NCBI GenBank assembly: GCA_043228905.1
Contig: JBHGNT010001091.1
Coordinates: forward strand, 1-12,171
DNA: 12,171 nt
Source of the DNA: Azolla caroliniana
Lineage: Eukaryota; Plantae; Polypodiophyta
Reading direction: 5' to 3'
Part shown: one piece after another, positions 1-12,171 of the stretch
Numbering within the stretch: the first letter of the stretch is position 1
How the letters are laid out: each line of letters opens with the position of its first letter
Translations under genes and position numbers: made by a program
Notes under the pieces: model-generated
The model's input: only the letters and a program-made list of their open reading frames with translations
What the model was told of the DNA's origin: nothing
The model's database searches: none

Positions 1-2600
1 AGGACAGTCGTACGGCCGATGCTTTGGAAGAACACTAGCTTTGCCTTTGTCGAAAACATCAGCATAGTCTTGATATTTTTTAGGAATTTGGATGTCTGAA
101 TTCCCTTGAGTGACAGTAGGTCGAGACGTCAGGTAAATCAAATTCACTATGACAATAAAAATGAGTCCAACATTTTAGAAGCAGTTAATGAATCTAATAT
201 TATGAATAATCCACCCTTGTCCAATAAGTTTGAAGTTTGAAGTCCTAAGCCAATTAGAAGAGAAGTCAAACAAATAAGTACGACCAAAATAAGAGCGATT
301 TGGTTGGACAACCCTAGATATGTACAACCTAGTGTGGGTTCCATTTCTTCCAAGCATATTAGTAGAGTCTTCTCAACCCAAGTACAAGTTAGGACACTGA
401 GTTGTCAACTTCAAGTCCAAGCCCTCTTAGATATTGGAGCAAATTCTTGTTTCATGGATAGAGATTTTTCCCAAAAACACCAAATATCCTTGCATACACT
501 TCCTTGTCTAGTTTCTGTAGTAGTGATTGATGGACGTCCCATAGCTTCCGGGAAGATATTCGAAGAGTCTAAGCCAATGCACATACTCTTAGGTGATTTA
601 GGATGTGTAGTGTCCTTTAACATAATCCGTACACCTGAGCATCCAATTGTCCTCGGTTTGCCATGGTTCGAGCTACATAACCCTAGAATCGATTGGAGGA
701 AGCGAGAAATTTGGTTTCCTTCAGCAGAAAATATCATTGCCAAGGATCGAACTCAAGGTTATTCTCTTGAAGAATATAGTTCTACCAATGCACCATCTCC
801 TTTTCATCAAATTTCAGCCATCACATTGCAACAATGGCGCCAAGTGGGAGGCAAGGAGGACCTTTTCTTATTTGCAGTATCAGTGACACCTTCTGGTGCC
901 ACTCAAGGGAATTTAGACATCCAAATTCCCAAAAAATATCAAGACAATGTTGATGTTTTCGACAAAGTCAAAGGTCGTGTTCTTCCAAAGCATCAACCGT
1001 ACGAGTGTCCTATTGATCTCCAACTAGGAAAAGAGCCATTGTGGGTTCCAATTTACAATTTATCACCCATTGAGCTTGAGGTTGTTTGAGAATACATTGA
1101 GGAAAATCTTGCACATGGTTTTATTCGACATTCAAAGTCTCCAGGTGGTGCTCCTATCTTTTTTGTGAAGAAAAAGGACGGCTCCCTTCGTTTGTTCATG
1201 GACTATCGAGGCTTAAATAAAGTCACCATAAGGAATAAGTATGCTCTACCTTTAATCTCCAGTCTCTTAGAACACATTGGTGGGGCAAAGCATTTTACCA
1301 AAATTGATCTAAGGGGTGCATATAATCTTGTTCGAATTCGAACGGGAAATGAGTGAAAAACTGCATTTCGTACTCGATATGGTCATTTCGAGTATATAGT
1401 CATGCCTTTCAGGCTCACAAATGCACCCGCAGTATTTCAACATATGGCAAATGACATTTTCCGGGATTTCTTGGATATATTTCTCATCATCTACCTAGAT
1501 GATCTGTTGATTTACTCTAAAACACAGGAGGAGCATGATATACATGTGCAGAAAATACTTGAATGCCTAAGAAAGTATGGTCTTAATGCCAAACTTGAGA
1601 AATGCAGTTTTGATTGCAAACATGTCAAAATTTTGGGATACACTATTTCATCCAAAGGTATTTTCATGGATCCAGCAAAAGTTCAAACAATATTGGAATG
1701 GAAACCCCCATGCTCAGTTCGGGATGTCTAGTGTTTCCCCGTATTTGCGAACTTCTATCGCAAATTCATACGTAATTATTCAAGGATTGTGTTCCCCCTC
1801 ACCCAACTCACCAAGAAAAATCAAGCATTTTTTTGGAGTATCGAAGCGGACAAGGCTTTTACTCAGCTAAAAGAGGCATTCACATCAGCGCCTATCCTAA
1901 CGCATATTGATCCCGAAAAGCTATTTACTATTGAGGTAGATGCGTCAGACTTCACATTGGGGAGTATCCTATCGCAACCAGGTGAAGACGGGCAGACTCA
2001 TCCAGTCGCGTTTCATTAGAGAAAATTTATTGTTTCGGAGATAAACTATGAGGTGCATGACAAGGAGTTACTAGCTGTGGTCAACTCATTCGAGCAATGG
2101 CGTCATTTTCTAGAAGGATCGCCTCATTAGATTATCATTTATAGTGATCACAAAAATCTCACATATTTTCAAATAGCTCAAGTATTAAAGAGAGGACAAG
2201 CTCAATGGGTCCAATTTCTAACGTGCTTCGATTTCAATATCATTTTTCACCCTGAAAAACAACAAGGGAAAGCAAATGCTTTGTCCCAACGTTCATATCT
2301 AGCTCTTCGACCTGGTGATGTGGCCTTTGATAATCAAAAGCAGATTCTCCTCGGTCCATCAAAGCTACAGGCAACAACAATTTATGCCACGCCACTTGAT
2401 TCTAGCCTTCTTGTGACTATTCGGCAACAACTTCACTCTAATGATTTCGCTAAGGATGTCTTAGCCCACATTGGTTCAAGTCCTCCATCTTGCTCTTCTA
2501 CAAGAATCTCCTTTACGTCCATGACGGATCACCCCAACTTCAAGTGTAAGAACATTGTCATGATGCCCCCATGGCTGGACATTTTGGTATTGCCAAGTCC
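1..2600 (+). mobile_element. Element A: decayed, truncated Ty3/gypsy LTR retrotransposon (chromovirus-type pol, Tcn1-like by motif recall)
   Basis: Domain order PR-RT-RH-IN is diagnostic of Ty3/gypsy. No LTR is visible; the 5' part is outside the window and coding similarity stops at about 2600. Confidence 0.9.
304..2600 (+). pseudogene. pol: pol polyprotein pseudogene of element A (aspartic protease, RT, RNase H, integrase zinc-finger start)
   Basis: ORFs at 304, 1165, 1402, 1789 and 2281 share one frame, broken by stops at 1087, 1354, 1729, 2017 and 2128. Protease ALLDIGA (D at 430) and VLGLPW...NPRIDW; [28 protein letters not shown] (1492-1503); RNase [23 protein letters not shown]. After a frame change near 2505 comes LLYV...HCHDAPMAGHFGIAK (integrase HHCC first half), then similarity ends. 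Confidence 0.93.
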
Positions 2601-2812
2601 ATTAGCTGGTGCAACACTCATACCAACCACTTAAGTTCATGTGAATGCACTTTTCCTTCACATTTACTTGGACTTAATGATTTACTCTGAGAAATCGGGT
2701 ATATCAATGGAACACAAGTGTCATGAACACATGACCATTATGGTGTCACCCGGACTTGAACCCCGAACCTTGTAATCCATAATTGAAAACCTCAACCATT
2801 AAGATAGCTTAT
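2601..2812 (-). mobile_element. tRNA-derived SINE-like element or tRNA retropseudogene with downstream body
   Basis: The minus strand 2812->2741 reads ATAAGCTATCTTAATGGTTGAGGTTTTCAATTATGGATTACAAGGTTCGGGGTTCAAGTCCGGGTGACACCA. It has an A-box-like TATCTTAATGG (2806-2796), a B-box GGTTCAAGTCC (2762-2752), tRNA-like spacing and a terminal CCA. Acceptor and anticodon stems do not pair. The left boundary is inferred only from where element A coding ends. Confidence 0.55.
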
Positions 2813-2949
2813 TGTCATATGAGAGCATAAAAGCTACTTTTTGTATTACATTGATTATTGTAAAAACTCTAGATCATCTAGACATTCTAGAAATCTCTAA
2901 GCTATTATCTAAGGGCATACATGTATTCTCAAATAAATTCGAATCAACA
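2813..2949. repeat. Possible short solo LTR or LTR remnant (137 bp)
   Basis: Begins TGTCA and ends CAACA (TGT...ACA), AT-rich, with TCTAGA at 9-bp spacing (2868, 2877, 2886). Flanks CTTAT and CTAGT match only 3/5, so a target-site duplication is not established. Confidence 0.35.
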
Positions 2950-2989
2950 CTAGTCTTTAGCTCTCATTACATATCTTGTATCCATTCTC

Positions 2990-5860
2990 TTTCTTTCTCT
3001 ATCTTAATACACCCATTCTTCTCTTAGCATACCTTGGTTTTTTAATAAAAACCCTTCTTTGTCCATTGATTGGGTTAATCACTCAATCACATTTGAACTT
3101 AATAATTGTAAACATTTTATTCAATGTTCCAAACTTCCTTCTCGTTTACTTGTGTCTTGTAAAACTTTAAGTTAGTATTCTAGTTCATTAATTTATTCGT
3201 GTGTAATTGATCCCGCGCTTCAATTCTATTATTTTAATCTTGATGCCACAAAATTACTAAATTATGAACGACAATTACTCGACTCTATTTTAGACGATTT
3301 GCAAGACATGTTTCCTAATGAATTGTCGCTTACTTTATCACCAAAACGTAATGTGAACCACCAAATTGAACTCATCCCTCGTGCTGCTCTTGTGAGCATT
3401 CCACCTTATTGACTTAGTCAATTAGAAGAGAATGAGATTGCAAAACAACTTAAGGAACACTTGAATATGGGTCACATTAGGTATAGTAAATCACCGTGGG
3501 GTGCGCTAGTTCTATTAGTTAGGAAGAAGGAAGATTCATGGCGAATGTTTATCAATTATCGTTGTTTGAATAAAATGACAATTAAAAATGCATATCCGTT
3601 ACCATGCCGATGATTTGATTAATCGTTTGCATGGGACCCGATATTTTTCGAAAATTGACTTACGAACAAGTTATCATCAGATTCGCATTGCCGAGGATGA
3701 TATTCCTAAAACCGCTTTTCGTACACGCTATGATCATTATGAGTTTTTGGTCATGCCTTTCGGGTTGACTAATGCTCCGGCCACATTACAACAAGCGATG
3801 AATGACGTTTTCCAAGAACAAGTCGGAGATTTTGTTGTCGTCTGCTTGGATGATATTCTCATATATAGCCATACCTTGCAAGCTCATGTTTAACATGTTC
3901 GATTTGTTTTGCAAAAGTTGCGTGACAACTCTTTCTATGCAAAACATTCAATGTGATTTTTTCCAAAAATGTATTGTGTACCTAGGTCATTTAATTACAG
4001 AAAATGGCGTTGAAATTGAACCTTCTCGTATTGAAAAGGTTAAACTTTGGCCCATTCCTCGTAATATTCGTGAACTTCAATCATTCTTAGGATTTGTTGG
4101 AGTTTTATGAAAATCAATTCGTAACTATTCCAAATTGACTACGCCATTAACTGACCGTTTAAAAGGTCATCCACGTAAGTTTGTCAAACCAATTTCCTGG
4201 AATGAAGAACTTGACACATCATTTGAGACACTCAAAGAGCATGTTTGTCAGGCTCCAACTCTTCTATTACTAGACCCTTCCAAGCCTTTCTCAATCGAAA
4301 CCTATGCTAGTGATTACGCTATTGGTGCCGTACTTTATCAAGGTGGTCACCCTATTGCTTTTGAAAGTAAGAAGCTTGATGTTGCTCAATCATGGTATTC
4401 GGTTAAAGAGAAATAGTTGTTCACGGTAATACATGCACTAAAAACATGGAAGCATTATCTCTATGGAAATCAATTTGTGGTTACAATGGACCATCAATCC
4501 TAAAAGTATTTTTGTGACCAACCAGATCTTGTTGGTCGTAAAGGCCGTTGGGCTAACCTTAGGCAAGATTTTGGTTTTTCCATACGGTATCACAAAGGTT
4601 CTATGAACACTATTGTAGATGGTCTTAGTCGCATTAAAGAAGTTAACATGCTTTCTTAGCTTCACGTAAATAAAATTTGATCTTTTAGATCACCTTCGTA
4701 GGAAATACCTTGATGACAGTTATTTCTCAAAATATTGAACGAAAGCCGAATGTGGTTTAGATGCCGTTACTAGCACCCTACCCTCGAAGGCGACCTTTCA
4801 CATTACAAACGGTTTGCTCTACCGTAGTGGAAAGGCCTGTGTTCCAGATTTACTAAACATAAAACAGAAAATTCTCCATGAACGTCATGATGCACCATCT
4901 ATTGGTCATCTTGGAATACAACACACACTCGTTCTCATCTCGAATACTTTTTTCTGGCCTAAGATGCACTATGACTTGCATAAATATGTGACTCAATGCT
5001 TACAATGTCAAATTAATAAGTCGAAACGACTTAAAGCTGCTGGTCTTTTACATCCCTTAGATATTCCCAACAACAAATGGGAAAGTATCTCGATGGATTT
5101 TAGTGTTGGTTTACCTCGTACACAAAGGGGTCATGATGCCATTTGGGTTGTCGTTGACCGACTAACAAAATTAGCTAGAGTTATTCCAACCAAAACCATA
5201 GTTACCACTCAACAATTGGCTTATCAATTTGTTGATGAGTTATTTCATTTTTATGGATTACCGATGGATATTGTTAGTGATCGAGATTCGAAGTTTACTA
5301 GTGACTTTTTGACTCAGGTCTTTAAGAAGCTAGAAACTGCGTTGAGCATGAGTTCCATAGATCATCCTCAGTCTGATGGATAAACTAAACAAGTTAATCA
5401 ACTTATTGAGGACATGCTTCGAGTTTATGTAGCAAAAACCACTTCCAAGTGGGAGCAATACCTTCCTATCTTAGAATTTTCCTATAATATCTCAAAACAT
5501 ACATCCACTGGATATAGTCCTTTTATGTTGATGTATGGTTTTCAGCCATGTGCCCCAGTCGATGTTATGATTCATTGTGATACATTAGATAGTACACGCA
5601 TTTTTTTGCAAGAAATGAACCAAATGTTGCATATTGCCAAAGAAAATGTCAAGACAGCTCAAGATCGTGCTCGATTTTATGCTAATCAAGATGGACGTCC
5701 TCGTGCATTTACTATTGGTCAAAAAGTTTTTTTGCGTATCCCTACTGACTCTATGTCATTGTAAACGAGCAAGTGCGCTAAGTAAGCCCCACGACATTGT
5801 GGCCCATATGAAATCCTTAAGCGACTTGGGTCATCTACTTATCACATTGCCTTACCTCGT
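2990..5860 (+). pseudogene. pol: Element B: heavily decayed Ty3/gypsy pol (protease C-terminus, RT, RNase H, integrase), interrupted at 5860 by element C
   Basis: LSIPWF...NPSLSIDW (from 3023; protease C-terminal LG.PW motif) is in frame with HQIELIP..PPY*LS..SKSPWGA..VRKK..KNAYPLP. Frameshift near 3604; [26 protein letters not shown] (3843-3854, YLDD mutated); frameshift near 3950. RNase H ETYASDYAIGAVL..HPIAFESKKL. Integrase HDAPSIGH..CLQC, SMDF, SDRD, HPQSDG*T, and CGPYEILKRLG..YHIALP ending near 5857. Start coordinate is approximate. Confidence 0.92.
4814..5860 (+). pseudogene. Integrase domain of element B (HHCC zinc finger, catalytic core, GPY/F)
   Basis: ORFs 4814-5383 and 5414-5764 are in the same frame, separated by TAA at 5381. 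The usual DGQTERVN reads DG*TKQVN, so the catalytic Glu is lost. Confidence 0.9.
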
Positions 5861-6481
5861 TGTCGAGGTATTCCTCGCGGATGCGTGGAATGAGGCGCAA
5901 CCTCGAGGGTCTTGTACCGAAGAGCAAGAGACAAAGGAGAAGGGAAGGGACCCACTACGAGTGGGCGTAGATTCACAGGGACACGGCCCTTCGACACAAA
6001 GACGCGAGTGGGACACGACGCAGAGAGACACGAATGTATGTATATATATATTAACAAGGACAAGCAACAAGAAGCACGAAGTCGGTTACAACCGAACAGG
6101 CCAGCGAACAGATGTTGATGCCTGTTCGTAAACGCTCAGAAAGAAAGGAGTAGGTGGGAGGTGCTGCCGGAAGCACTCGGGCATTCCTCAGAGTAGCGCG
6201 AGCCTCCCCAAAACCCTGCACAGAAAGAAGCTACGGAGTATGGAAGAGAGAGAAGCCTTCGGTCCGCAACCCGACAGCACTTCGTCCTCTCTCCGCGCGA
6301 TCCCTCACTCCTCCTCGTCTCCCTCCTTTTATAGGCAAGAAAGGAGCCGTTTCCCATTAACTACCTACCGGATCTACCTACCTAGGATCTTCTATGTACT
6401 ACATAAGACGCACGTGCATGAAGAGCCGGTTCCTACGCTCCGGTACACCGATTCCGCTTGTGGACGGTTTTCTTCACGACA
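5861..6481 (-). repeat. 3' LTR of element C (621 bp)
   Basis: On the minus strand it starts TGTCGTG directly after the PPT and ends CCTCGACA, giving a 5-bp terminal inverted repeat TGTCG/CGACA. Its end coincides with the interruption of element B integrase. The second LTR is not in the window for confirmation. Confidence 0.88.
6327..6333 (-). promoter_or_regulatory. TATA box in LTR U3
   Basis: Minus strand GCCTATAAAAGGAGGG, about 150 bp inside the LTR start, the expected location for the Pol II promoter of an LTR. Confidence 0.7.
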
Positions 6482-6494
6482 TCCGCCCCCACCT
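6482..6494 (-). other. Polypurine tract (plus-strand primer) of element C
   Basis: Minus strand AGGTGGGGGCGGA directly abuts the TG of the LTR, 60 bp after the integrase stop. Confidence 0.85.
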
Positions 6495-6554
6495 AACCGC
6501 GCATCCACCGGCATGCGCCAAATTGAGTTGGGACGGAGAAAACCGGTCCAGCCT

Positions 6555-7622
6555 TCATTCCCTGCCCGTCGGTTCTTCCTCGGTTTCGGATCGTTCGTCG
6601 TCGTGGTCCAGGTTAACCGGATCCGGCTCGTCGTCGTGACGCTTCTTGAACGCTTTGATCTGCTTCCCAGCTACCGGTATCGCCATTCTCGTGCCGTCGA
6701 GCTCCGCCAGATGGTACGTCCCGTTGTCGTTGGCGCTTTGTACCACGTAAGGCCCGAACCACCTTCTCGCGAACTTCCGTGTCGCTCGGTGCTGGTTGTC
6801 GAGGCTGTTGTCGTAGACTAGCACCCAGTCGCCTTCCTCGATCTTCTTTGGTCGGAGCCGGTGCGTCCGGTCGTACCGGGCTTTGTTCCTCGTCCTTGCC
6901 ACCCGAAGCTTTCCCGCAGCCTGCTCCACGTCCTCCGGTCTTCGCTCGAGCTGTCGTATGCGCGCCGCCAATAGTTCCTCCCGGCTCATCTCGTCTTTCC
7001 AGTCCACGGTTGCCCATGAGGAGATCGTACGTTCCATCGGCATGATCGGCTTCTGCCCAAACATGAGCTCTGCCGGCATGAATCCGGTTACCGAACTATG
7101 CGTAGTTCGGTCCGCCCACAACGCGTAAGGCAACAGCCGCGGCCAGTTCCCGACTTGACCTCTGCATGCCTGAACTAACGCCTTGACGATCGGTCCATGT
7201 CCGCGCTCCACCTTCCCATTCGCCTCCGGATTGTACGAAGTGGTAAGCGAGAGCTTGACTCCTAGCCGGTCGAACAGCTCCTCGACCTCTTCGGCATCCA
7301 ACTCCCCGCGATCAGCCACGATCTTCCCGACGCACCCGTACCGGCATATCACGTCCTCAATCAGGAACCGACATACGGCCGCAGTCGTTTTGTTCTGAAG
7401 GGCTCGGCCTTCCACCTGGTTCGTCAAATCTTCCCGAGCCAGGACCAGATACCACATCTGTCCTACTCCCATCGGCATCATCACCAGATCTACCATCCAT
7501 TTGAAGTGGATGGTCGGAGGGTACGTAGGGTGAAGCTCATCCCGATGTCGTACTATGGAGTGCATCTGACAGCTCTCGCAAGTTGTCACGAACCGATGCA
7601 TTCCCGGTACAGTCCCGACCAC
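6555..7622 (-). CDS. Integrase of element C (CC half of zinc finger, DDE core, GPY/F; no chromodomain); fragment of disrupted pol
   Basis: CESCQ, WMVDLV (D), VADRG (D), YNPEANGKVERGH (E), WFGPYVV, short acidic tail. Joined to the upstream frame by a 1-bp loss near 7602 (WWSGLYR / HRFVTTC). Confidence 0.9.
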   Translation of the reverse strand: MVGTVPGMHRFVTTCESCQMHSIVRHRDELHPTYPPTIHFKWMVDLVMMPMGVGQMWYLVLAREDLTNQVEGRALQNKTTAAVCRFLIEDVICRYGCVGKIVADRGELDAEEVEELFDRLGVKLSLTTSYNPEANGKVERGHGPIVKALVQACRGQVGNWPRLLPYALWADRTTHSSVTGFMPAELMFGQKPIMPMERTISSWATVDWKDEMSREELLAARIRQLERRPEDVEQAAGKLRVARTRNKARYDRTHRLRPKKIEEGDWVLVYDNSLDNQHRATRKFARRWFGPYVVQSANDNGTYHLAELDGTRMAIPVAGKQIKAFKKRHDDEPDPVNLDHDDERSETEEEPTGRE

Positions 7623-8077
7623 CAGTACTTCCCCTTTATCTTCTCAAACGTGGCCCACGTTCCACGGTGTCCAGCCCAAGGGCTGTCGTGGTAGGCCGTC
7701 AGCAGCTCCTCCTGTTCTTCCTTCATCGCCACCACCCGGAGCGGGACGCCGTTCCTCTTCTTCAGGTGCTTCCATGAGTATCCGTCCCGGAGAAAGAATC
7801 GGTATGCTTTCTTCCGGATCCGGTTGGCCTCGTCCCTCGTCCACGACGCATCCGGCGTCATTGTCCTCAAGAAACCACCGATCTGGATCCACTCGCCGTC
7901 GTACTTGCTCTCGTCGAAGCCGTTAAGCGCCGGAGCGCTCGTCCCATCGGTCGTCACGTACGATGCCTCGAAGAAGTCCACGCCGACTTCTTCGTCCTCC
8001 GAAACCATGCCGCCCTCGTCATCAAACCTCGCCCTCGAAAGCATGTCGGCCATGGCGTTGTCCTTTCCGAAAATGTG
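7586..8077 (-). CDS. pol fragment of element C: RNase H end, linker and HH half of integrase zinc finger
   Basis: In frame with 8078-9913 across one TGA: DPEI*HIFGKDNAMADMLSR. Later AYHDSPWAGHRG..KYWW. Confidence 0.85.
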   Translation of the reverse strand, partial: HIFGKDNAMADMLSRARFDDEGGMVSEDEEVGVDFFEASYVTTDGTSAPALNGFDESKYDGEWIQIGGFLRTMTPDASWTRDEANRIRKKAYRFFLRDGYSWKHLKKRNGVPLRVVAMKEEQEELLTAYHDSPWAGHRGTWATFEKIKGKYWWSGLYRECIGS

Positions 8078-10051
8078 TCATATTTCCGGGTCCAGGGACT
8101 TGATGTATGCTATCCACCTGAGCATCGCCAGGTCCGGTGTAGCGCATCCGGAAACCATGCCGAGAATTGGGAGGCAATCCATCTCGATAATCACTTCTGT
8201 CCCGATCAGGTAGTCTTTGTCAGCCTTTAATGCCGAAACGATACCCCAGAGTTCTCGTTTAACCTGGGCATACCCTCGTTGTCGCTCACTGAGGACCTTC
8301 GCGCCGAATCGGATCGGGAACCGAATGTCGTCCTCGTCTTCTTGGTTGACGACCCATCCGATCCCGGTCGGACTCGTATCCACCGTTATGTATACCGGGG
8401 TACCCTTCTCGTAGACAGCCTTCCGGAGCGCCGGTGATGCCGCAAGAGCTTCCTTCAGCTTCCGGACCGACTCCGTGTGCTCGTCTCGCCACTCGAATTT
8501 TTGCCCTTTCTTCAGCAACCCGTATAGCGGCTCCGCAACGTGGGCGTAATGCGGGATCCATACGTGGTAGAATGTGCACGCCCCCAGGAACCTCCGAACT
8601 TCTGTAACCGAGCTACAATCGGTCTTCATCGCGGAGATGGCTTCTACTTTTGCCGGAGACGGCTTCCGGCCATATGGTCCACATAGGTGTCCGACCACCA
8701 GGATTTCTGATTGCCCGAAGGCCGATTTCTCCCCGGAGAAGGTGAGCCTCGCACCCTCTAGCCTTTGTAGCACCCTTTCGCAGTCGTTGATATGTGTTGC
8801 CACGAATCGCCGGCATCCGTCCGGCCCGAGTGTCTCGTCTTTCTCTTCCAGTGGGCACCCCTTTATCGGGATATCGTCTAGAAACGGCATGGTGATGTCC
8901 GGGATGCAATCCCTCAGTACTTTGTTCATTGCATTCACCATGTGGGCCACCGAGTTGGTCCCTCCTTGTGGCATGGTACACATTCGCACTAGGCCGAGGG
9001 GAGTTCGCATCGTCGTAATGTCTCTGCTCTCCACGGCTAGCTGGAACTGGTCGTACCCCGAGTACAGATCACCGACCGAGTAAATCGACCTTCCGGCGAA
9101 GGCCTCCGCGAACTCGTCTATGGTCGGTCTGATTCCTGTGTTCCGAATGGTCACTCTGTTGACCGGCTGCAGGTCTTGAATGAAGCACAATGTTCCGTTT
9201 TTCTTTGGTACGGTAAACCATCGGTTCGAGTATGGGGCACTCGATGGTTCGAGAATGCCCATATCGACTTTCTGCCTCAATAGCTCCATCAACTTCGGGA
9301 TGTGAGCTCTCGGTACTGGAATCGGCTTGAGATTCCACGGCACATGCGGTACCGTGAATATCACCATTGGCTCCACGATTGTCGGGTCTACGCACCCGAT
9401 CTCCTCCGGTGAGAACGTGAAGGCTTTCCTGTGCCTTCCGAGCATTCTCCGAAACCGGTCTTCCTCCGCCGGCAGTAGGAACCCACCCCCACCGATTTTG
9501 AGCTCTCGGAGCGTCCCGTCGGTGAAGGTGTGTCCTATGCAGACCGGATCTCGTAAACTGGGGTCCGACGCAACCCCTCTGATTCGGGACTCGCTGCCCT
9601 CCGGTAAGGGTGCCGCAACTGGCCTTACCTTTCGGTCCACCGTCTTGTACTTCGTGCTAACCCGGGCCGTCCGATCCGACCTGAGCCCCTGACTGAAGTT
9701 CGCGATGACTTCGTACATCTCTTCGGAACATACCGGTATTGTCCGGTCTTCGTTAAGGCCTTCTCCGGCTACCTCCCTCAGCATTCCCAAGGTGTCGTCG
9801 AAGGAGACCGCCTCCACGGCTCCACTGATTTCCTCGTCCGGGCCAAGAACTCCGCACGCTCGAAGTCGCTCCTCCGCCCTTGCCTTTTCTCGGCCAACGA
9901 TGCCGACCATCACACACCCTCCGTTGTTGGAGAAGCAAAATTTCCTACCTATCGTACAAGGTTTCTTCGGTTTCGGTTCTATCGTACAGCTGTGGGGTCT
10001 TTCCCGAGTGTTCGGACTGCCTCGGCCCCACGCCTTGGCAGCCCTCTCTAA
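8078..10051 (-). CDS. pol: Reverse transcriptase and RNase H of element C (pol frame, open from the slippery site to the TGA at 8078)
   Basis: PYSNRWFTVPKKNG, QDLQPVN, DLYSGYDQ, MPQGGTNS, PFLDD (FLDD 8884-8873); RNase H VDTSPTGIG, YAQVKRELWG, EMDC. The frame of ORF 8078-9913 stays open upstream through 10051 (FLERAAKAWG...GGCVMVG). Confidence 0.93.
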   Translation of the reverse strand, partial: LERAAKAWGRGSPNTRERPHSCTIEPKPKKPCTIGRKFCFSNNGGCVMVGIVGREKARAEERLRACGVLGPDEEISGAVEAVSFDDTLGMLREVAGEGLNEDRTIPVCSEEMYEVIANFSQGLRSDRTARVSTKYKTVDRKVRPVAAPLPEGSESRIRGVASDPSLRDPVCIGHTFTDGTLRELKIGGGGFLLPAEEDRFRRMLGRHRKAFTFSPEEIGCVDPTIVEPMVIFTVPHVPWNLKPIPVPRAHIPKLMELLRQKVDMGILEPSSAPYSNRWFTVPKKNGTLCFIQDLQPVNRVTIRNTGIRPTIDEFAEAFAGRSIYSVGDLYSGYDQFQLAVESRDITTMRTPLGLVRMCTMPQGGTNSVAHMVNAMNKVLRDCIPDITMPFLDDIPIKGCPLEEKDETLGPDGCRRFVATHINDCERVLQRLEGARLTFSGEKSAFGQSEILVVGHLCGPYGRKPSPAKVEAISAMKTDCSSVTEVRRFLGACTFYHVWIPHYAHVAEPLYGLLKKGQKFEWRDEHTESVRKLKEALAASPALRKAVYEKGTPVYITVDTSPTGIGWVVNQEDEDDIRFPIRFGAKVLSERQRGYAQVKRELWGIVSALKADKDYLIGTEVIIEMDCLPILGMVSGCATPDLAMLRWIAYIKSLDPEI

Positions 10052-10057
10052 AAATCC
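9992..10057 (-). promoter_or_regulatory. Putative programmed -1 ribosomal frameshift signal (slippery heptamer plus pseudoknot)
   Basis: G_GAT_TTT (10057-10051) directly precedes the gag-pro TAG, and the -1 frame is the pol frame. 6-nt spacer; stem 1 GGGCTGCC (10044-10037)/GGCAGTCC (10021-10014); stem 2 GTGGGG (10031-10026)/CCCCAC (9997-9992). Confidence 0.75.
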
Positions 10058-10728
10058 TCCCGGTTCTCGCCACCGAGGGATTCGCGGTTTCGCTCGTGGT
10101 TCGGCCGCACCGTCAGAAATTGGACCGAATGGCGCCCGTCCTGGCTTTTGACCCTCGCGTAGGCCGAACCGTTGTCCAGCACCTTGGTCTCCATTCGCGC
10201 CGCCGTGATGTATGGTTCCCCTAATATGACCGGGTGTGATGACGTCTCCTGAACGAAGAAGTGCTGGTCAATCTCGACGTCGCCGATCTTGACTCGCACG
10301 TTCGGGCAGGCCCCGTGCAGTTCCTCGGTGGCGCACGTCGCCGCCCGTATCTTCCACCCGTGCTTGGTGTTGATCGGCCACTTTCCCTTCTTATAGAAGT
10401 CCATGGACATCAGGTTTATTTCCGAACCGTGGTCCACCAATGCCACCACCGGTTCCTGAACATCTCCGATCTTTACCGGGGTCTCCGTGGTCGCTTGGGC
10501 CCAGTGTGGCCTCGAATAGTGGCTCTCCGCCCACTCATCTTCCAGCGCCAAGTCGTCGATGTGCGTCGTCCGCACCTCCACCGGTCTTTCCGGTTCCGTC
10601 TCCGTTGACAGCCTCTTCCGCTTCACCAAGTCCACAATGGAGTCGTGGAACTCCTTCTTAGCAATCCCTAGCACCTCCCGCAATGACAGCTCCACTTTGC
10701 TGTCGAGGATCTGCTCTTCTAGGACCTT
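10048..10728 (-). CDS. Aspartic protease region of element C, in the gag reading frame
   Basis: VALVDHGSEINLMS (D at 10434) and HFFVQE..HPVILGEPY. Same frame as gag, separated only by the TGA at 10731-10729 (TDL*KVLEEQILDSKVELSLREVL). Confidence 0.85.
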   Translation of the reverse strand, partial: KVLEEQILDSKVELSLREVLGIAKKEFHDSIVDLVKRKRLSTETEPERPVEVRTTHIDDLALEDEWAESHYSRPHWAQATTETPVKIGDVQEPVVALVDHGSEINLMSMDFYKKGKWPINTKHGWKIRAATCATEELHGACPNVRVKIGDVEIDQHFFVQETSSHPVILGEPYITAARMETKVLDNGSAYARVKSQDGRHSVQFLTVRPNHERNRESLGGENREDF

Positions 10729-12147
10729 TCATAGGTCCGTGGTCCTTTCTATTTCCGTCCCCAGTCGGTATCCACCCTTCCTGGGGTTATCTTGCGCGCT
10801 GGACCCACCGGCATCGTTCCGTCGCTGCCCGAATCGGGTCTCGTATCGTTGTGAGGGCCCGGCCGCTCCGGCTTTCCCCACTCGTTTGTCTTCTACCAGA
10901 GCCTCGTAGTTCCGGCAGGCGGCATCTACGAAGCCCATCTTCTCCTCAACCGGGTCGCTCCACCCGGTTATTTCCCGAACCCGTCTCTCAGCGCGGTTCG
11001 CTTCATCTTTCCTCAGCCGTGCGCCAGCGAGGCCTTCCAACATTGCCGACAAGAATCCGTCTTTGCTCTCCTTTCGGGCCTCGCTGCCCCCGACCCGAAT
11101 ACCGGCCGACGCCGAGTAGTGGATGGCCTCCACGTGTCGGGCCGCTGCCTCTTCCATCAATCTCTTCATACCTCCTCGCCCGTCGTTCCGGTTTAGGGCC
11201 CTTCTGGTATCGTCGGCGTGCACCCGGCCTTCCCATAGGTACACCACCCGGTTCCTCAACGCCTCTGCGAAATCGCCGCAATCCTTCCGAATGTGGCCGA
11301 CCTCGTCGCACCACATGCACCTGTTCCCTGCTACCGGCCGTCGGTCACGAGCCGGTTCGCCGCCTTCCCTTCGAGTCTGGGCGATCTGGAGATCCTTTAT
11401 CGCCCGCGTCAACTCCTCCAGCGTTGCTCCTCCGGACGAGTCATTGACCATGCCGGTCGGAGCCGACCCGGTTTTGAGCCACTCCCAGGCTTCTGCCCTT
11501 CGCCCTTGCGGTGCCGATTCAAGCCTCCTTGCTGTGACAGAGCCCGCACCGGCCGCCCCGTTATCAGCCCATTCTCGCCGTTTGTCGAAACGGCCACAGA
11601 CTCTCTTAACCGCAGCCCAGTCGGTCGTCGGACCGTCTTCGGTTTCCAGCAAGGAGCCGACTTGATCCTGGTCCTGCTCGTCCACCGACTTGACGAGCAG
11701 TAGGAGCCGGCTCGTATCCAGAATGGTTCGGTCAAGCGCCGAAAGGCATGCAAAGCGTTTTTCAAACTCCCGGAGGACTGCCGACGCGTTTCTTCCCTTG
11801 CCGAGGGACTCCACCCATTCCATGAAGTCCCGTTTCGAAAGCCGGAGCGCGTCGTCCAGCCCGTATTTTTCTAGGAGTCGGCCTTTGAACTCCTCCCAGG
11901 TATGACTCTCCGCCCGTACCTCCAGCACCTCCGCATGGATGCTCGGCATCGCCACTCGAGGGAACCCGGCAAGACGCCTTTCTTCCGGAATGTCCCGCAT
12001 CAGCATTTCTGCCCCGTAGGACGCCAAATACTTCGTGGCATCCTTTCCGCTGAACCGGCCGATCGTACCGACGACCGCCTCAATGGCTCTATCGAGGGCG
12101 CCGGTGCCCTCGCGTGTGCTCAATATCCGATCCACGGCCGAAGCCAT
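10729..12147 (-). CDS. gag: Gag of element C with CCHC zinc knuckle
   Basis: 472-aa ORF. ATG in GAGGCCATGG context, though the frame is open to the window edge. RFSGKDATKYL capsid-like start; CMWCDEVGHIRKDC = CX2CX4HX4C (11319-11278). Confidence 0.88.
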   Translation of the reverse strand: MASAVDRILSTREGTGALDRAIEAVVGTIGRFSGKDATKYLASYGAEMLMRDIPEERRLAGFPRVAMPSIHAEVLEVRAESHTWEEFKGRLLEKYGLDDALRLSKRDFMEWVESLGKGRNASAVLREFEKRFACLSALDRTILDTSRLLLLVKSVDEQDQDQVGSLLETEDGPTTDWAAVKRVCGRFDKRREWADNGAAGAGSVTARRLESAPQGRRAEAWEWLKTGSAPTGMVNDSSGGATLEELTRAIKDLQIAQTRREGGEPARDRRPVAGNRCMWCDEVGHIRKDCGDFAEALRNRVVYLWEGRVHADDTRRALNRNDGRGGMKRLMEEAAARHVEAIHYSASAGIRVGGSEARKESKDGFLSAMLEGLAGARLRKDEANRAERRVREITGWSDPVEEKMGFVDAACRNYEALVEDKRVGKAGAAGPSQRYETRFGQRRNDAGGSSAQDNPRKGGYRLGTEIERTTDL

Positions 12148-12171
12148 GGCCTCTGCAAGATCCGACCCCCT

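Follow-up and report, generated by a model that had tools for sequence, protein, structure and literature searches.

Among the Ty3/gypsy retrotransposons with long terminal repeats (LTRs) found in plants, Phygy is a non-chromovirus lineage whose polyprotein organisation is listed as 'ND', with no recoding signal given, in the lineage descriptions of Neumann et al. 2019 (PMC6317226). Where a 2016 review treats plant elements, it has only +1 gag/pol cases, which come from the 2003 survey of Gao et al. (PMC5009743). The −2 cases named in the relevant passages of reviews are phage Mu, the arteriviruses and Trichomonas virus 1, with no retroelement among them. We analysed a stretch of 12,171 nucleotides from Azolla caroliniana (assembly GCA_043228905.1, contig JBHGNT010001091.1, positions 1 to 12,171), here called the window, which holds a decayed Phygy-like element. 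Taking into account the relatives of this copy, it is very probable that the family as a whole carries a conserved programmed −1 frameshift signal located after the protease. Considering that only +1 cases are recorded for plants, a plant element with a well-supported −1 signal of the pseudoknot type would be a useful addition. It would supply the missing expression strategy of a retrotransposon lineage that is high in copy number in seed-free plants and has its open reading frame (ORF) layout listed as not determined, and would explain the inconsistent introns that public gene models place between protease and reverse transcriptase (RT). It is also new that two diverged relatives, nested among the −1 elements, have pol in the +1/−2 frame. 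The −1 and the candidate −2 cassettes, one base of spacing apart and with the same structure, offer a natural experiment on the size of the slip.

The slippery site and its conservation

ORF1 of the window copy ends with GAG GAT TTT TAG. This end, the heptamer, the 6-nt spacer and the 8-bp stem are all found where the earlier note had placed them; its positions are right, although it left unstated that they lie on the minus strand (Table 1). The −1 frame is free of stops from 10267 to 8081 (−) and covers RT and most of RNase H, and the trans-frame peptide reads NREDFLERAAK, both as had been claimed. The heptamer is of the X_XXY_YYZ type and stands in the correct phase for a −1 shift, in the forms G_GAU_UUU/C and G_GGU_UUU. 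Heptamers of the G_GA class are listed as a tolerated form and are functional in dianthoviruses and umbraviruses (PMC5009743); for the dianthoviruses the earlier note had named GGAUUUU. The 6-nt spacer fits the range of 5-9 nt given for −1 signals (PMC7618472).

According to this layout, a share of the ribosomes would slip back one base at G_GAU_UUU, stalled by the predicted H-type pseudoknot 6 nt downstream of the heptamer. Most ribosomes would terminate at the adjacent stop and release Gag-protease, and the shifted ones would produce a chain of Gag, protease (PR), linker, RT, RNase H (RH) and integrase (IN). Gag and protease would thus come in equal amounts, with rationing limited to RT, RNase H and integrase.

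The ends of ORF1 were compared in its protein homologues, of which 210 were found. Among the 120 matches listed, 67 end in D/G/N-F-stop, 26 in DF/GF followed by 3-4 residues and PL/PF, two in QVF-x-stop and 25 in other ways, many of the latter being eukaryotic gene models. The named sources are Physcomitrium, Riccia and Adiantum, which by themselves would make a seed-free plant the probable host, and intact sister ORF1s of 708-717 amino acids share the REDF end. At the DNA level, 88 metagenome loci were fetched with a protease-side motif pattern that excluded the slippery site, which together with the window makes 89 sequences. The frame count was performed on the 56 in which an ORF1 stop is followed by a match to RT (the other 33 lacked the stop or the match and were not counted). 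Pol is in the −1 frame and open across the heptamer in 47/56, at stop-to-RT distances of 356 to 443 nt and with the −1 phase always held; it is open in the +1/−2 frame in 2/56, and 7/56 have stops between ORF1 and RT. The post-protease site with a −1 shift to RT-RH-IN, proposed in the earlier note, is in this way supported as a family-wide signal. The continuous protease-RT frame that the note had considered as the alternative was found in 0/56, and four DNA runs with thousands of contigs had no indel at 3% or more across 9700-10400. Joints in Logan contigs were disregarded, being single-contig, short-sided and scattered. A 1-bp indel confined to one dead copy could be thought of because the window copy carries three other lesions, but it is refuted by the frame count, the −1 register being common to intact relatives such as L031 (727-codon ORF1, 1162-codon pol) and L008, and its probability is negligible. 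A tree of 32 near-complete RT-RNase H rows contains at least a dozen well-separated families. Protein and pattern searches of viral contigs gave no match.

The conservation of the heptamer was then considered codon by codon in 67 of the 85 ORF1 ends, those with the reading DF-stop. A G closes the codon that precedes Asp in 66/67 (32/33 in fourfold boxes, against a background of 30%), Asp is GAT in 66/67 (background 56%) and Phe is TTT in 62/67 (background 44%). The stop codons of the same relatives are TAG in 31, TAA in 23 and TGA in 13. Considering that the heptamer is kept at synonymous positions and that all three stops are in use, the constraint acts on the nucleotides and not on the protein.

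Upstream of the Met near RT, the linker has a ratio of nonsynonymous to synonymous differences (pN/pS) of 0.22-0.75 in 9 pairs and the other frames contain 3-23 stops; the linker is under purifying selection. The 20 representatives used were picked among loci already open, and the zero stops in their pol frame are no test, unlike the other frames and pN/pS. These pN/pS values disfavour both an intron and internal initiation. According to the latter possibility, ribosomes would start, or start again, at an AUG close to RT and make pol separately, and in many loci an ATG does stand in frame some 57-72 nt ahead of the RT-side core. However, that Met is missing in L030, L023 and the Riccia and Physcomitrium sequences, the purifying selection extends upstream of it and the heptamer would be left unexplained, which makes separate initiation very improbable.

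The position of the signal after a protease was also evaluated. In the window copy the domain matches Pfam PF13650 with E = 0.006, under the cut-off and a weak call; an aspartyl protease family match is present in 12/63 ORF1 homologues. The structure model of the protease has a predicted local distance difference test score of about 90-97 across the domain, and the fold search made with it gave as top matches the Ddi1 retropepsin and the proteases of xenotropic murine leukaemia virus-related virus, equine infectious anaemia virus, feline immunodeficiency virus and human immunodeficiency virus, with E from 2e-6. The modelled fold confirms a retropepsin-type protease upstream of the slippery site. 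A PDB sequence search using the protease alone had no match, and the family profile against PDB sequences had Ty3 Gag-Pol as its top match. It is noted that the active-site motif, at 10426-10434 (−), is D-H-G instead of D-T/S-G, with D and G invariant in 63 homologues.

RNA structure downstream of the heptamer

The minimum-energy fold, which contains stem 1, has z = −3.0 for the region 9992-10044, with 2/200 shuffles as good; over a segment of 131 nt, z weakens to −1.5. The covariation alignment was built with 43 of the 45 distinct class-I sequences, L030 and L085 being left out because their stems differ; both are covered by the free-register analysis below. Changes on both sides occur in 5/8 pairs of stem 1 and in 3/6 pairs of stem 2, and the window copy has G-C and C-G in stem 1 where most relatives carry A-U and U-A. 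Stems 1 and 2 reach a covariation score of 0.27, compared with 0.17 when shuffled (0/500) and at most 0.14 in slid pairings, and their paired cells are above those of 500/500 shuffles and of every slid register. The covariation check suggested in the earlier note thus gives compensatory changes in stem 1 with a conserved heptamer and −1 register, and weaker support for stem 2.

The same note had described a stacked pseudoknot. Its GUGGGG/CCCCAC complement is present, with weaker support across the family, but its CCGA/UCGG arm is not conserved: it can pair in this copy, but over the 43 relatives in only 34% of cells, and both halves vary in sisters (10022, 10005), so it was rejected as private to this copy. 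If the register is left free, 47/51 sequences can form a stem 2 with at least 5 bp. The strands of stem 2 change together, as GUGGGG/CCCCAC, GCGGGG/CCCCGC, GGGGCU/AGCCCC, GGGAC/GUCCC, GAGGGU/ACCCUC and GCGGGA/UCUCGC, and the 3′ strand lies mostly 9-17 nt past stem 1. This co-change of both strands between classes is a better argument for stem 2 than the statistics of each sequence.

A second class of sites (L013, L020, L023 and L074) is unrelated in sequence and has the 6-nt spacer and the stem geometry of the first. Its heptamers are G_GGU_UUU, G_GAU_UUU or G_GAU_UUC, stem 1 has 7-8/8 pairs and the candidate stem 2 is GCGGGA/UCUCGC, AGGCGGGG/UCCCGCCU or CAAGG/CCUUG; the stop comes 15 nt later than in the first class. 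On these grounds it is fairly probable that the stimulator is a pseudoknot rather than a hairpin. Two further loci have particular arrangements. L085 combines a stop-adjacent heptamer with the stems of the second class, and in L030 (56-185), which belongs to a group with an ORF1 of 800-900 amino acids, stem 1 is longer, with an internal extension after G_GAU_UUC.

Alternative explanations

Several observations weigh against a conserved −1 signal. The window copy is dead, with a gag stop at 10731-10729, an RNase H stop at 8080-8078 and a frame change at 7637-7601; a single frame break in such a copy proves nothing, so the case for conservation rests on the relatives. Most of these loci come from one assembly accession series, and near-duplicates are among them (the 63 class-I loci reduce to 45 distinct 73-mers). 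Being related and partly duplicated, they are not independent events in the counts, and the shuffle control of the stems takes no account of kinship. That ribosomes shift, and how often, is inferred, as is the formation of stem 2. Stem 2 beats its own shuffles (p < 0.05) in only 16/51 sequences, and in the window copy it is not above them (p = 0.22). The relative P0177, with 62% RT identity, reads continuously from protease to RT, and the public gene models of Riccia and Physcomitrium fuse protease to RT. The RNA data are shallow and come from a sister family, and since their reads occur in both mate directions, carry-over of DNA is possible.

With stem 2 short and individually weak (79.8% paired at fixed columns), a plain hairpin could be the stimulator. 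In this variant of the −1 shift, stem 1 and the adjacent stop would suffice and stem 2 would be dispensable; a nearby stop is needed at the G_GAU_UUU site of pea enation mosaic virus (PEMV) RNA2 (PMC5009743). Against it, the partners of stem 2 co-change across classes at a mostly constrained distance, as described above, and a stop is not required next to the heptamer, since that of the second class lies 15 nt further on. We consider the hairpin variant unlikely.

Besides P0177, which sits on a long branch of uncertain placement, four distant relatives (P0179-P0182, with 38-46% RT identity) have protease and RT in one frame. Because all of these read through, the single ORF is probably the ancestral state. 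P0180 is labelled as bacterial (Bosea), probably by contamination, and P0182 is fungal.

Another alternative is splicing as in Ogre, with an intron that joins Gag-protease to RT and an incidental slippery site; an intron at this place had also been named in the earlier note. Ogre has its intron at the same position (PMC6317226), and 14 longer homologues, all of them gene models of Riccia or Physcomitrium, have the domains fused, with some junctions recurring. Nevertheless, where the junctions can be located they are widely scattered, 29-159 residues from the RT-side KYK motif; moreover, an intron would have no need of an open −1 frame, a kept phase and purifying selection, all of which the region has. 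Nearly every fused protein in the databases is a gene model of Riccia or Physcomitrium, and considering that the junction lengths vary, as expected when predictors bridge a frame break, these are probably annotation artefacts with predicted introns. In the Riccia sorocarpa and Physcomitrium models P0122-P0135 and P0166-P0178 the frames are joined over junctions of varying length and the site is dropped. No RNA run was listed as carrying the stretch itself, and the RNA consulted is about one eighth of each of three poly(A) runs from a related organism, with reads of a sister family. The 185 reads on 9600-10300, a shallow set with a depth of 8-21x at the site, contained no splice joint and only an in-frame deletion of 6 nt, which is weak evidence but in the expected direction. 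We regard splicing as hardly probable. The missing 6 nt are near 9974, within a tandem duplication (TGTACGATAG x2, 9950-9990 (−)) that lies directly past the pseudoknot region.

Two relatives with pol in the +1/−2 frame

In L048 and L067, ORF1 ends with CAG GTT TTT (G/T)AC TAG and pol is open in the +1/−2 frame for 1153 and 1100 codons, respectively. Both loci are 80% identical in DNA. Taking into account a synonymous divergence (dS) of about 1.2 in pol and a ratio of nonsynonymous to synonymous divergence (dN/dS) of 0.09, the +1/−2 layout has persisted under selection. ORF1 ends of this type recur in their protein clusters, and the pol-frame peptide aligns ungapped with that of the −1 elements. 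Both stems are kept, and a stem of 10-12 bp begins 5 nt downstream (z −2.4 and −3.3). A double −1 route was rejected, because in both loci the −1 frame stops just upstream of the site; downstream, it meets a stop immediately in L048 and after four codons in L067.

L048 and L067 group with −1 elements (98/100 support) and further −1 elements lie outside; the tree of 32 RT-RNase H rows, which has no outgroup, does not resolve their place. Since they are nested among −1 elements the +1/−2 state is likely derived, and it would have originated by the loss of one base from a site of the G_GGU_UUU type. The best spacers for −2 shifting have been described as 1-2 nt shorter than those for −1 shifting (PMC7618472); here the spacer has 5 nt instead of 6. 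We lean towards the view that this branch, a candidate drawn from two DNA loci, shifts by −2 at AG_GUU_UUU with the help of the same structure. In these two loci only, the tRNA-Phe could instead slip +1 at UUU, which enters the same frame; known access to the +1 frame is mostly by +1 shifting (PMC5009743) and L067 has UUU_U at the slip position. But L048 has UUU_G, where re-pairing in +1 would be worse, both loci retain AG_GUU_UUU, the −2/−1 site of PRRSV, the virus of the porcine reproductive and respiratory syndrome, together with the 5-nt spacer, and both descend from −1 elements. A +1 slip is therefore doubtful.

Returning to the −2 shift, it seems reasonably likely that the frameshift was gained from a single-ORF ancestor, that the pseudoknot sequence was rebuilt more than once with its geometry retained, that one branch passed from −1 to −2 by the loss of one base and that the arterivirus sequence AG_GUU_UUU was reached independently. 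If this is true, RNA structure by itself would drive a −2 shift in nature in the branch of L048 and L067, and evolution would there have put the spacer-tension model of frameshifting to the test.

The element and its surroundings

The order Gag-PR-RT-RH-IN, the LTR and the polypurine tract are those of a Ty3/gypsy element. In the Gag part of ORF1 the translation has a zinc-knuckle-like CxxCxxxGHxxxxC, and the match to DUF4100 is weak. The element is inserted in an older one, whose frame reaches the insertion junction, where the GC content changes from about 0.37 to 0.55-0.6. The region 241-5856 (+) holds two decayed AT-rich gypsy elements in tandem, in which the RT repeats are at 1357 and 3708 (75% alike); it is the second element that the GC-rich one interrupts. 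They may be Tcn1-like, by a resemblance of motifs only. An inverted repeat of 115 nt (1-115 / 897-1011, 90% complementary, 781 nt apart) encloses a protease-like frame and may represent either an inversion at this place or a DNA element of small size.

Table 1. Positions of the element, its recoding signal and related loci (window coordinates unless a locus is named).
Feature	Position	Strand	Remarks
Ty3/gypsy LTR retrotransposon, GC-rich, Phygy-like, decayed	12171 to 5861	−	3′ three quarters only
ORF1, Gag + protease	10048..12171	−	runs off the window edge; stop at 10731-10729
Retropepsin-type aspartic protease domain	10219..10479	−	D-x-G invariant, here DHG
Pol, −1 frame	6555..10057	−	about 130-codon linker, RT, RNase H, integrase; broken at 8080-8078 and 7637-7601
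RT	about 9121-8687	−	in the pol −1 frame
RNase H	about 8491-8102	−	in the pol −1 frame
Slippery heptamer G_GAU_UUU (X_XXY_YYZ type, G_GA class)	10051..10057	−	sequence GGATTTT
ORF1 stop TAG	10048..10050	−	adjoins the heptamer; ORF1 ends GAG GAT TTT TAG
Spacer TAGAGA, 6 nt	10045..10050	−	equal length in 43/43 aligned relatives and in the second class
Stem 1, 5′ strand GGGCTGCC	10037..10044	−	95.6% of cells paired; in the minimum-energy fold
Stem 1, 3′ strand GGCAGTCC	10014..10021	−	in the minimum-energy fold
Predicted stem 2, 5′ strand GUGGGG	10026..10031	−	in the stem 1 loop; 79.8% paired, fixed columns
Predicted stem 2, 3′ strand CCCCAC	9992..9997	−	pairs with GUGGGG
Polypurine tract	6482..6494	−	adjoins the LTR start
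3′ LTR	5861..6481	−	621 nt, TGTCG...CGACA; corresponds to the 5′ LTR regions in loci L004 and L002
Likely target-site duplication ACGA (NCGN form)	5857..5860	−	one flank visible
Older AT-rich decayed gypsy element	3579..5856	+	Pfam RT and integrase matches; integrase end interrupted by the GC-rich insertion
Second-class loci	L013:1546-1675, L020:6082-6211, L023:1163-1292, L074:1301-1430, L085:349-478		same geometry
Candidate −2 sites, pol in the +1/−2 frame	L048:5370-5440; L067:2495-2565	−; +	AG_GUU_UUU, 5-nt spacer

Comparison with known systems

The family appears to be Phygy-like by its traits and homologues. As in Phygy, close homologues are found in Physcomitrium, with proteins 55-67% identical. 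A primer site for tRNA-Trp is among the traits of Phygy (PMC6317226). The sequence TGGTGAACCCG(A/G)CGTGA is present upstream of gag in 27/88 loci, many others being too short, and lies directly past the LTR end; the window stops short of the 5′ end. It is presumably complementary to tRNA-Trp. ACGA after the window LTR and ACGT in L009, of which one flank each is visible, would be compatible with the NCGN target-site form of Phygy (PMC6317226). Neither a chromodomain nor a second RNase H is among the Pfam matches in the pol frames of the window, and the element lies within an older gypsy element, close to the integrase end of the latter, as is reported for Phygy in Tcn1 (PMC6911290). Its estimated length of about 7.0 kb is slightly below the 7.7-10 kb stated for Phygy (PMC6317226); the estimate derives from the 621-nt LTR and from sisters, whose primer site precedes the motif by about 2.1 kb.

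Neither this signal in Phygy nor a retrotransposon that shifts by −2 is described in the literature covered, most subscription papers and annotations of the Repbase type, which may mention the two ORFs, lying outside its scope. The relevant passages on Ylt1 (PMC5014426), on the transposable elements of Physcomitrium (PMC7466625) and on Retand (PMC11963269) do not treat the junction between protease and RT. A pro/pol frameshift in Skipper of Dictyostelium was not borne out, as PMC5006619 puts its protease in ORF2.

The same heptamer with a stop close behind, used by plant ribosomes, is found in PEMV RNA2, the dianthoviruses and the umbraviruses. In these plant RNA viruses the stem-loop pairs with an element kilobases away (PMC5009743), whereas here a compact local pseudoknot is predicted. 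The eight bases of the nsp2TF −2/−1 site of PRRSV, AG_GUU_UUU, are identical in L048 and L067. The arterivirus site lacks an RNA structure downstream and depends on nsp1beta and the poly(C)-binding protein PCBP (PMC7618472), whereas L048 and L067 have the ancestral structure 5 nt downstream. A signal of the arterivirus type has a protein-bound C-rich motif 10 nt downstream in place of RNA structure. They may work like the arterivirus signal but are not a member of that group, because a stem of 10-12 bp begins 5 nt downstream.

The split between Gag-protease and RT is shared with Ogre and Retand of the Tat lineage, which have an intron and a single stop, respectively (PMC6317226). Both carry an extra RNase H; the element described here has no second RNase H by Pfam, its frames overlap at the slippery site and no splice joint is present in the RNA reads, which sets it apart from the Ogre/Tat group. 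The layout is like that of the alpharetroviruses, Rous sarcoma virus (RSV) and the avian sarcoma and leukosis viruses, in which protease is part of Gag and a pseudoknot is involved (PMC12789967) and a −1 shift gives access to Pol (PMC5009743). The RSV-type layout seen in the earlier note matches, but the split is not unique among plant gypsy elements. Considering that it is known in Ogre by an intron, in Retand by a stop and in RSV by a −1 shift, a post-protease split is not new as such. With respect to RSV, ours is a retrotransposon without env, with another heptamer and structure and a linker of about 130 codons before RT. As the distant relatives have a single ORF, the resemblance to the RSV layout would be a convergence.

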